The notes beneath the pieces are model-generated. The model did not search any database and was not told where the DNA came from. It was given only the letters and a program-made list of their open reading frames with translations. 64,000 nt of DNA from a bacterium (GTDB lineage: Bacteria > Patescibacteriota > Minisyncoccia > Phycocordibacterales > UBA1006): contig JBAWXN010000001.1 in the NCBI GenBank assembly GCA_037144045.1, positions 66,487-130,486 on the forward strand, read 5' to 3'. Below, in pieces: positions 4,487 to 4,818 of the stretch (the stretch's first letter is position 1; each line of letters opens with the position of its first letter). The position numbers were made by a program, and so were the translations under genes.

Positions 4487-4515
4487 TTGACAAAAACTAA
4501 CCATAATGCTAAGAT
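4487..4515 (+). promoter_or_regulatory. sigma70-like promoter for rpsP (TTGACA-17-TAAGAT)
   Basis: -35 at 4487-4492, 17-nt spacer, -10 at 4510-4515. The ATG is at 4525, so the predicted TSS is about 2-3 nt upstream (near-leaderless). Confidence 0.6.
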
Positions 4516-4524
4516 GCCTCTACT

Positions 4525-4818
4525 ATGTTAAAAATGCGATTACAACGAACAGGACGCAAAAACGAACCTCAATACCGAGTGGTTATTACCGATCAACGAA
4601 ACGGAGTACAATCTGGTAAATTTATTGATATTGTAGGATCATACAATCCAAAAGCTGGAACCGTAGATCTTAAGAAAGACATCATCACTGACTGGATTTC
4701 AAAAGGAGTTCAATTGTCTGACACGGTTCACAACTTCCTCGTTGAACACAAAGTAATCGAAGGAAAGAAAATCTCTTCTCTCCCAAAGAAGACTTCAGTA
4801 AAACGAAAGACTAAATAA
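4525..4818 (+). CDS. rpsP: 30S ribosomal protein S16
   Basis: N-terminus MLKMRLQRTGRKNEPQYRVVITDQRNG is diagnostic of S16. Confidence 0.88.
   Translation: MLKMRLQRTGRKNEPQYRVVITDQRNGVQSGKFIDIVGSYNPKAGTVDLKKDIITDWISKGVQLSDTVHNFLVEHKVIEGKKISSLPKKTSVKRKTK

Follow-up and report, generated by a model that had tools for sequence, protein, structure and literature searches.

In the 'group C' genomes of GeneMarkS-2, a Pribnow box lies 6-8 nt from the starts of first genes, 25-60% of transcripts are predicted to be leaderless, and the remaining genes carry Shine-Dalgarno (SD) sites; Actinobacteria and Deinococcus-Thermus make up most of the group (Lomsadze et al. 2018, PMC6028130). Low-GC Mollicutes were added to group C in the MetaGeneMark-2 preprint (10.1101/2022.07.25.500264). 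'Group B' genomes (Bacteroidetes/FCB) have leadered mRNAs, a single non-SD motif in front of every gene, and a 16S rRNA that keeps the anti-SD (PMC6028130). In the Parcubacteria, the anti-SD was detected in only 48%, overlapping the group that lacks uL1, and SD helices are probably not formed; the route of initiation is unaddressed in that study and the word 'leaderless' is absent from its text (Tsurumaki et al. 2022, RNA 28:1041, PMC9297842). The subject here is a 64-kb stretch of bacterial DNA (the window) in which -10 promoter hexamers directly adjoin the ATG start codons of many genes; together with ~14 kb of held-out flanks (L210 and L211) it makes up the ~78 kb of one genome that was examined. 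The sequence pattern suggests, with good confidence, a Parcubacteria genome that has given up SD pairing and in which about half of the genes are leaderless or near-leaderless and the other cistrons are initiated independently of SD. A sequence-only reading of the window had proposed that the lineage relies largely on leaderless or SD-independent initiation; every sequence-level prediction tested came out in line with that proposal, but the pattern extends to about half of the genes and not to all.

The window resembles group C in that a -10 hexamer is localised 6-9 nt before first genes (26 of 48 genes standing first in their transcription unit, flanks included), and it shares a reduced genome with the low-GC Mollicutes of that group. 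It differs in that every gene class lacks an SD signal and the anti-SD is absent, whereas group C uses SD on its other genes and keeps the anti-SD; furthermore, neither the Candidate Phyla Radiation (CPR) nor the Parcubacteria are among the group C lineages in PMC6028130. SD-free translation and AT-rich sequence upstream of starts are shared with group B, but the window motif is a TG-extended -10 that is enriched at first genes, also precedes RNA genes, and is lacking where a promoter lies farther upstream. As in the anti-SD-less Parcubacteria of Tsurumaki et al., the 3' end of the window 16S lacks CCUCC(U); a place within the Parcubacteria is suggested by RpoB, whose best named hits are labelled Pacebacteria, Nomurabacteria or Paceibacterota. 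The rplK-rplA region, relevant to the uL1 loss of that subgroup, lies outside the window and the flanks. Relative to that study, the promoter-at-ATG architecture appears to be new and may supply the missing mechanistic half.

The CPR/Patescibacteria represent a large share of bacterial diversity, and initiation after anti-SD loss was left open in the literature searched. No paper linking leaderless starts with Patescibacteria, Parcubacteria, CPR or Saccharibacteria was found, in a search by which subscription journals were mostly uncovered and in which absence is no proof. Each ingredient is known elsewhere, while the combination was not found described for CPR/Parcubacteria; this is apparently a leaderless-rich genome without any SD system in a lineage where such a genome is undescribed. 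It offers a concrete, testable answer, namely leaderless transcripts from promoters at the ATG together with SD-independent internal initiation, a logical yet undocumented consequence of anti-SD loss.

In mammalian mitochondria the small-subunit rRNA lacks an anti-SD, the mRNAs are leaderless or nearly so, and the ribosome is reduced. Mitochondria are organelles that process polycistronic transcripts and employ dedicated factors, whereas here the same end state appears to have been arrived at by a cellular bacterium through sigma70-type promoters at the ATG. If true, this would be the mitochondrial solution in bacterial form, and SD-free initiation could be studied in it as a natural system. 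It would also bear on leaderless initiation as an ancestral or default mode that reappears with ribosome reduction, and on the expression of CPR genes in other hosts.

Promoter elements adjoining start codons

All six promoter and start codon pairs singled out in the sequence-only reading (rpsP, alr, proS, uvrA, the sugar transferase gene and the PALP gene) were found in place with d = 6-9 nt, where d counts the nucleotides that separate the end of the -10 hexamer from the A of the ATG. TANNNT stands at this distance in 26 of the 51 window genes, compared with 8.2±2.6 genes in shuffles of the 30-nt upstream regions (maximum 19 in 5000), 3.6% of internal in-frame ATGs (n = 394) and 6.6% of all other ATGs (binomial p = 1e-17). 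The TG-extended form, TGnTANNNT, was present at d = 6-9 in 13 of the 51 genes versus 0.47 in shuffles (p = 2e-21). Matches to TGNTANNNT numbered 163 on both strands, 24 of them intergenic; half of the intergenic matches (12 of 24) were located 6-9 nt before an annotated ATG, and one more match at that distance fell within coding sequence. The computational check suggested in the sequence-only reading, a scan of all start codons for -10 distance and SD motifs, thus gave a positional -10 peak at 6-9 nt and no SD enrichment in the 51 genes. Relatives were retrieved via GlmS, L083-L086 at 93-77% identity and L087-L089 at 51-55%, partly syntenic, and d = 6 was the largest single spacing class in the window, in the relatives and in independent gene calls alike. 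The motif was also found at 6-9 nt in 7 of 14 unit-first genes of the held-out flanks (rnc, rpmF, rnhB, the cytochrome-b5, metallophosphatase and grpE genes, and a hypothetical, hyp97). By the author's own classification, the 51 window genes comprise ~21 with strong and 4 with weaker promoters at 6-9 nt, ~8 with promoters at 11-19 nt, ~7 with longer leaders (including rpsB, rpoB and KhpA), and ~10 internal genes without a promoter.

The distance of 6-9 nt is that expected from a -10 box to the transcription start. The element adjoining the ATG has a T-A-n-n-n-T signature; in roughly half of the cases it is preceded by a TG precisely at -15/-14, and a -35 is frequent at 16-18 nt. In front of the tRNA-Thr gene, a TG-extended motif is again combined with a -35 (24270..24298, minus strand; TTGAAA, 17 nt, TGATAAGAT; ~29 nt upstream of the tRNA), and two promoter candidates, TTGACT-16-TATACT at 34931-34958 and TGCTATGAT at 35043-35051 (together 34931..35051, plus strand), lie 215-308 nt upstream of the 16S gene. 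Since neither RNA is translated, the element is taken to be a promoter and not a ribosome-binding site. Of the 14 genes whose best promoter lies at least 11 nt upstream, only 2 have another TANNNT at 6-9 nt, which equals the background rate; start codons therefore do not require the element in general. In the window and flanks, the TG-extended form at d = 6-9 was found at 15 of 48 unit-first genes versus 2 of 25 internal genes (p = 0.039), and the internal cistrons of the ribosomal-protein operon are mostly without the element.

The window is densely coding (~52 open reading frames (ORFs)), with 3,317 nt (5%) non-coding. Sites resembling intrinsic terminators were counted at 21, 25 and 21 versus ~14 expected, and strong ones sit directly upstream of ATG-adjoining promoters. 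Intergenic spacers of 55-90 nt consist of a terminator, then a promoter, then the ATG, a compaction that leaves the position beside the ATG as the only one available to a promoter, because the spacer already holds the upstream terminator.

The individual promoters are given here on the plus strand unless marked minus. The spacing d = 9 is seen at rpsP (4487..4527), with TTGACA at 4487-4492, 17 nt, a TG (4507-4508) and the -10 TGCTAAGAT at 4507-4515 (TAAGAT 4510-4515) before ATG 4525, and at the divergent RNase R gene (4453..4493, minus), with TTGTCA 4493-4488, 17 nt, and TGCTATACT 4473-4465 before ATG 4455. These two genes have a common spacer of 69 nt, and their -35 elements (TTGACA on the plus strand, TTGTCA on the minus strand) overlap on opposite strands at 4487-4493; they would represent two near-leaderless units placed back to back. 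The same 9-nt distance is found at mreB (28189..28209; TGCTACACT 28189-28197, ATG 28207), uvrB (40733..40753; TGGTAAGGT 40733-40741, ATG 40751), mltG/YceG (49383..49423; TTGGCC, 17 nt, TGATATTAT 49403-49411, ATG 49421) and alaS (55806..55826; TGGTAGGGT 55806-55814, ATG 55824).

At d = 8 stand the promoters of the peptidoglycan-binding protein gene (8275..8314; TTGCGA, 17 nt, TGATACAAT 8295-8303, ATG 8312), the endo/exonuclease/phosphatase-family gene (31009..31048; TTGTTA, 17 nt, TATATT 31032-31037, ATG 31046), glmS (33048..33064; TATACT 33048-33053, ATG 33062) and uvrA (43904..43943; TTGTAA, 17 nt, TGCTAGAAT 43924-43932, of which TAGAAT ends at 43932, ATG 43941). The promoter of a hypothetical gene at 24276-24686 also has d = 8 and lies within the 3' end of tsf (24684..24723, minus; TTGAAA, 17 nt, TATAGT 24700-24695, ATG 24686). 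A distance of 7 nt is found at proS (26541..26579; TTGTAA, 17 nt, TATAGT 26564-26569, ATG 26577) and at a hydrolase gene (30462..30480; TGCTATTAT 30462-30470, within the upstream ORF, ATG 30478).

The 6-nt class includes alr (4863..4880; TGATATAGT 4863-4871, with TATAGT at 4866-4871, ATG 4878), which directly follows the rpsP terminator, and the PGA_cap/VanY gene (2340..2357, minus; TGCTACAAT 2357-2349, ATG 2342), for which an independent call gave the same 558-aa start. It further includes a coiled-coil hypothetical (30092..30109; TGTTAGAAT 30092-30100, ATG 30107), the sugar transferase gene (37105..37119; TATAAT 37105-37110, ATG 37117), mnmA (51719..51736; TGGTACTAT 51719-51727, ATG 51734) and the PALP enzyme gene (61005..61019, minus; TATACT 61019-61014, ATG 61007). 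Two further members have their likely true starts inside the longest ORF, namely trmD (10659..10695; TTGAAA, 16 nt, TATACT 10681-10686, ATG 10693, 8 codons inside) and a hypothetical gene (52834..52851; TGCTATAGT 52834-52842, ATG 52849, 22 codons inside the ORF that begins at 52783).

Start codons, Shine-Dalgarno sequences and relatives

Several starts are anchored by the proteins themselves. GlmS is obligatorily Met-Cys, as in amidotransferase-family enzymes of this type the catalytic N-terminal Cys is exposed once Met is removed; the glmS start is thereby fixed at an ATG-TGY with the -10 at 8 nt. For S16, the N-terminus MLKMRLQRTGRK is in register with canonical starts of the protein, and the N-termini of S16, ProRS (MRQSQL...), MreB, AlaRS and others fit their families. 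Independent gene calls from public assemblies placed ATG at 137 of 144 starts, again with the peak at d = 6. The true start of trmD is most likely 10693 and not 10669, and that of the ORF at 52783 is most likely 52849, as judged from the sequence. Pipeline or longest-ORF starts are probably too far upstream for infA (63607, corrected to 63643), mreB of L084 (5481 to 5535) and proS of L088 (4056 to 4068). All five corrected starts have a suitable -10 distance and/or the N-terminus of their orthologues. A hypothetical gene called at 62240 probably starts at 62282, the sole basis being an independent pipeline call (426 versus 440 aa). These six genes illustrate how start callers that lean on SD motifs misplace starts, which a model of -10 distance would correct.

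The absence of GGAGG-type ribosome-binding sites asserted in the sequence-only reading was borne out, as an SD core (GGAG, GAGG or AGGA in -20..-4) was found in 1 of 51 window genes versus 3.1 in shuffles. No SD peak was present at any offset in the window genes, whereas the same analysis of SD-using CPR loci gave a peak at 4-11 nt. The core was found in 0 of 22 held-out genes and in 6 of the 144 independent gene calls, and the hybridisation energy of upstream regions to the canonical anti-SD was no better than that of shuffles. The 16S indeed lacks its anti-SD, as had also been noted: in a covariance-model alignment reaching the last model position, the 3' end is GGAUCAAUUCAAUU versus the Rfam consensus GGAUcACCUCCUUu, standing where the general consensus reads GGAUCACCUCCUUU, and CCUCC is absent. 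In the tail GGATCAATTCAATT (36822..36835, plus strand), AUUCA replaces CCUCC, while helix 45 and its GGAA loop are intact. The relative L085, with a 16S 96.6% identical, has an identical tail. Pairing of upstream regions with the genome's own 16S tail CAAUUCAAUUG as a 'neo-SD' was rejected (-1.25 versus -1.31 kcal/mol in shuffles). The tract ctccctcctt (43865-43877, minus) preceding a small hypothetical gene at 43601-43864 (ATG 43864) is an anti-SD-like pyrimidine tract and not an SD; it could be chance, or the gene may not be real.

At orthologous starts, the arrangement of -10 and ATG is kept while the spacer sequence diverges. For glmS in the window and four close relatives, d is 8, 6, 8, 10 and 6 with unrelated spacers. 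The proS -10 is present in 5 of 5 genomes, at d = 7-8 in L084, L085 and L089 and at d = 10 in L088 after start correction. TGCTAnAnT is kept before mreB in 5 of 5 genomes (d = 9-13), and the hydrolase -10 has d = 7 in 3 of 3 genomes (window, L084 and L088), even where the gene is unit-first. The endo/exonuclease/phosphatase gene has its -10 in 2 of 2 genomes (TATATT at d = 6 in L085), and tgt has one at d = 6-7 only in those genomes in which it heads its transcription unit.

SD-using CPR and non-CPR controls came from a separate GlmS scan of a genome collection, which yielded relatives of at most 47% identity and no 16S in the loci, and one naive ORF caller was applied to all groups. In the window clade (143 genes), TANNNT peaked at d = 6 (16%) with 8% at each of d = 7-9, and the SD core was at or below 1% at every offset. 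Other CPR loci (253 genes) showed a small TANNNT peak at d = 6 and an SD peak at 4-11 nt, and non-CPR loci (401 genes) showed no TANNNT peak and an SD peak. A metagenome scan for 16S genes with a non-C at three anti-SD positions (the first two Cs and the last C of CCUCC) yielded at least 120 diverse anti-SD-less loci; those listed have A/T-rich tails (TTTTTTT, ATTAATT, TTTATTT and others) and are 71-82% identical to the window 16S. Among the 406 genes flanking the listed loci (at least 120), the SD signal was weak, and TGnTANNNT peaked at d = 6-8, at 5.2% summed versus a background of ~0.3% per offset. Loss of the anti-SD is thus widespread and diverse, with putative promoter-at-ATG genes throughout and the window clade as a strong case.

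A second feature of the starts is the base at -1. In 73 curated starts (window, L210 and L211), it was T in 58, C in 10, and A or G in 5, that is, a pyrimidine in 68 of 73. T accounts for 79% of curated starts, internal cistrons included, compared with 35% of internal in-frame ATGs. With naive ORF calls, T at -1 fell from 71% in the window to 69% in relatives, 58% in the loci of anti-SD-less metagenomic 16S genes among the matches listed (at least 120), 45% in SD-using CPR and 24% in non-CPR. Starts with promoters at d = 6-7 had a pyrimidine at -1 in 20 of 20 cases, fitting a Y(-1)R(+1) transcription start, and promoters at d = 9 had an A seven nt after the -10 (position -3) in 9 of 9, a sequence pattern that suggests 3-nt leaders. 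T was also present at -1 in 30 of 37 genes without an adjoining -10. The preference could be a transcription-start rule in leaderless genes, and in leadered cistrons it could mean that U(-1) pairs with A37 of the initiator tRNA. The latter idea derives from work on extended codon-anticodon interaction.

Modes of initiation and competing explanations

Promoters in this genome would mostly be of the '-10 only' or TG-extended -10 type. For about half of the genes and more than half of the transcription units, the polymerase would start at the A of the ATG where d is 6-7 and 1-3 nt before it where d is 8-9, so that the class as a whole would have leaders of 0-3 nt. Such leaderless mRNAs would presumably be recognised through their 5'-terminal AUG by the ribosome and initiator tRNA, and initiation at a 5'-terminal AUG needs no anti-SD. 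Some units would carry leaders of ~5-60 nt without SD, and the operon-internal genes of infA-rpmJ-rpsM-rpsK-rpsD-rpoA-rplQ-rplM-rpsI and rpoC-dnaG-rpoD would likewise be translated without SD. For the internal and leadered cistrons, re-initiation or scanning after the upstream stop may operate, or entry at unstructured AU-rich starts. Internal cistrons of the ribosomal-protein operon, rpoC-dnaG-rpoD and mreC have no SD; from the preceding stop to their start the distance is -23 to 38 nt, in most cases 1-31. Start regions have less structure than the interiors of genes (-2.9 versus -4.8 kcal/mol, p = 0.005). These properties fit re-initiation and unstructured-start entry alike, the ribosomal mechanism being one that we infer from sequence. 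For the whole clade, and probably also for the metagenomic lineages with A/T-rich tails, the balance tips slightly towards a complete lack of SD pairing, with most units leaderless by a TG-extended -10 at the ATG and the other cistrons, those of the ribosomal-protein operons among them, SD-independent and marked by a near-invariant -1 pyrimidine (79% U) and near-exclusive AUG.

Several points weigh against leaderless initiation at half of the genes. A generic scan for TTGACA-N16-18-TATAAT showed no enrichment over dinucleotide shuffles (39 vs 52, 56 vs 55 and 38 vs 52). The 'good sigma70-like promoters' of the sequence-only reading therefore stand as to position but are no evidence by themselves; the evidence lies in how sharply the -10 is positioned with respect to the ATG. 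Plain TANNNT at d = 6-9 occurs at 10 of 25 internal genes, with no significant contrast to the unit-first genes (26 of 48; Fisher p = 0.33), and the internal hits call for many promoters embedded in upstream coding sequence or for inflation by stop codons. Some do overlap upstream stops, e.g. TAAATT before 50424, which contains the mltG stop; others, e.g. TTGAAA-17-TATAGT before 24686 and TGCTATTAT before 30478, look like genuine promoters within the preceding ORF. Transcription starts are placed here from promoter geometry alone, i.e. the distance from -10 to ATG. At d = 8-9 (9-13 for mreB), leaders of 1-6 nt are more likely than strict leaderlessness, and in E. coli 5' extensions lower leaderless translation. 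In L087-L089, glmS (9950-10000) has a TG-extended -10 ~37-40 nt upstream, followed by a conserved A-rich, SD-less leader (...aacatttaaa...); leaderless starts are thus not obligatory in an SD-less background, and leadered SD-free initiation appears to exist in this group as well. Finally, the analysis covered ~78 kb of the genome, and a further rRNA operon whose tail is normal may be present elsewhere.

The most substantial alternative accepts the promoters as real but holds that most transcripts have short leaders (~3-10 nt), initiation depending on a 5'-proximal or context signal, e.g. U(-1) with A37 of the initiator tRNA, and not on a 5'-terminal AUG. We regard it as a possible but minority explanation. 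It gains from the half of the class with d = 8-9, from the nine d = 9 promoters, in all of which the canonical +1 is an A located 3 nt before the ATG, from the range of mreB spacings across relatives, from a further set of units with the -10 at d = 11-18, and from the T at -1 that marks 79% of starts including internal cistrons. On the other side, the biggest class is d = 6, which puts the A of the ATG at the canonical start position, and leaders of up to 5 nt are conventionally counted as leaderless in studies of transcription start sites. The short-leader explanation is a refinement of leaderless or near-leaderless initiation and not a contradiction of it.

A different proposal is improbable, namely that TAnnnT at 6-9 nt acts on the mRNA as a non-SD signal for ribosome binding or enhancement, in the style of 'group B', the transcripts being leadered and their true promoters lying farther upstream. 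The near-equal frequency of plain TANNNT at internal and unit-first genes would suit it, as would the strong T at -1 in every gene class, which could be read as a translational context effect. Such a signal does not account for the TG at exactly -15/-14 and the frequent -35 at 16-18 nt, for the motif before the untranslated tRNA-Thr and 16S genes, or for its lack both in genes with a clear upstream promoter (2 of 14) and in most internal cistrons of the ribosomal-protein operon; moreover, spacers of 55-90 nt with a terminator have no space for a second promoter. An artefact of AT-rich upstream composition, upstream stops or wrong start choice is more remote still. The upstream regions are AT-rich and shuffles still give the motif to ~16% of genes, a few internal hits overlap stop codons, and several longest-ORF starts needed moving. 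Against this, the shuffles preserve composition and never exceeded 19 genes in 5000 rounds, compared with the 26 observed, and the peak is confined to d = 6-9, being absent at other offsets and at internal ATGs. Independent gene calls returned the same peak, and the held-out sequence and the relatives replicated it; N-termini anchor the starts of conserved proteins, and non-CPR controls have no peak. An artefact was accordingly rejected on the basis of shuffles, internal ATGs and held-out flanks, and leaderless or near-leaderless transcription from promoters at the ATG is the preferred explanation.

Gene content and other features of the window

The GC content of the window is 39-41%, and the gene set is of the reduced CPR type (a short EF-Ts, ProRS, AlaRS, rpoB, rpoC, dnaG, rpoD, mreBC, glmS and uvrAB, among others). 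The gene of the cognate sigma factor lies at 20886-22148. Exact window proteins were also found in the Logan metagenome assemblies SRR12676975 and SRR14234072 and in an NCBI metagenome-assembled genome. The best named matches of RpoB have 68-70% identity and are labelled Candidatus Pacebacteria, Nomurabacteria or Paceibacterota, while the nearest relatives of GlmS include both Parcubacteria and Saccharibacteria. The best hits of RpoB suggest placement of the organism in the Parcubacteria/Paceibacteria (CPR).

RNA genes in the window comprise one tRNA-Thr and one complete 16S rRNA gene (35266-36835). Downstream of the 16S gene, a spacer of 281 nt (36836-37116) leads to the sugar-transferase gene and not to a 23S gene; in a crude test with two short motifs, conserved 23S motifs were found downstream of 3 of 120 listed anti-SD-less metagenomic 16S genes (at least 120). 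The window 16S also carries a 49-nt insertion at ~36440-36490 (model ~1157-1160), where the bacterial consensus has a 4-nt loop.

The rpsB-tsf leader (25851-25925, minus) is long and contains two conserved hairpins, CCTAGG-CGTCA-CCTAGG and AAAAGGC...GCCTTTT, with three compensatory pair changes between the window and L088 (3374-3450). No Rfam family matched the hairpins. The leader is possibly an S2 autoregulatory leader, within a genome that otherwise avoids leaders.

Two loci given jointly (6488-8254 and 57629-60025) encode a predicted secreted protein with a weak match to a C-terminal sorting domain of the type IX secretion system (T9SS) and a 798-aa protein with a Peptidase_S74 domain (endosialidase chaperone, phage tail-fibre-like). 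A 346-aa protein encoded at 46755-47795 combines Sigma70 region 4 with a HARE-HTH domain, a fold like that of the RNA polymerase delta subunit, and represents an unusual transcription-factor architecture.

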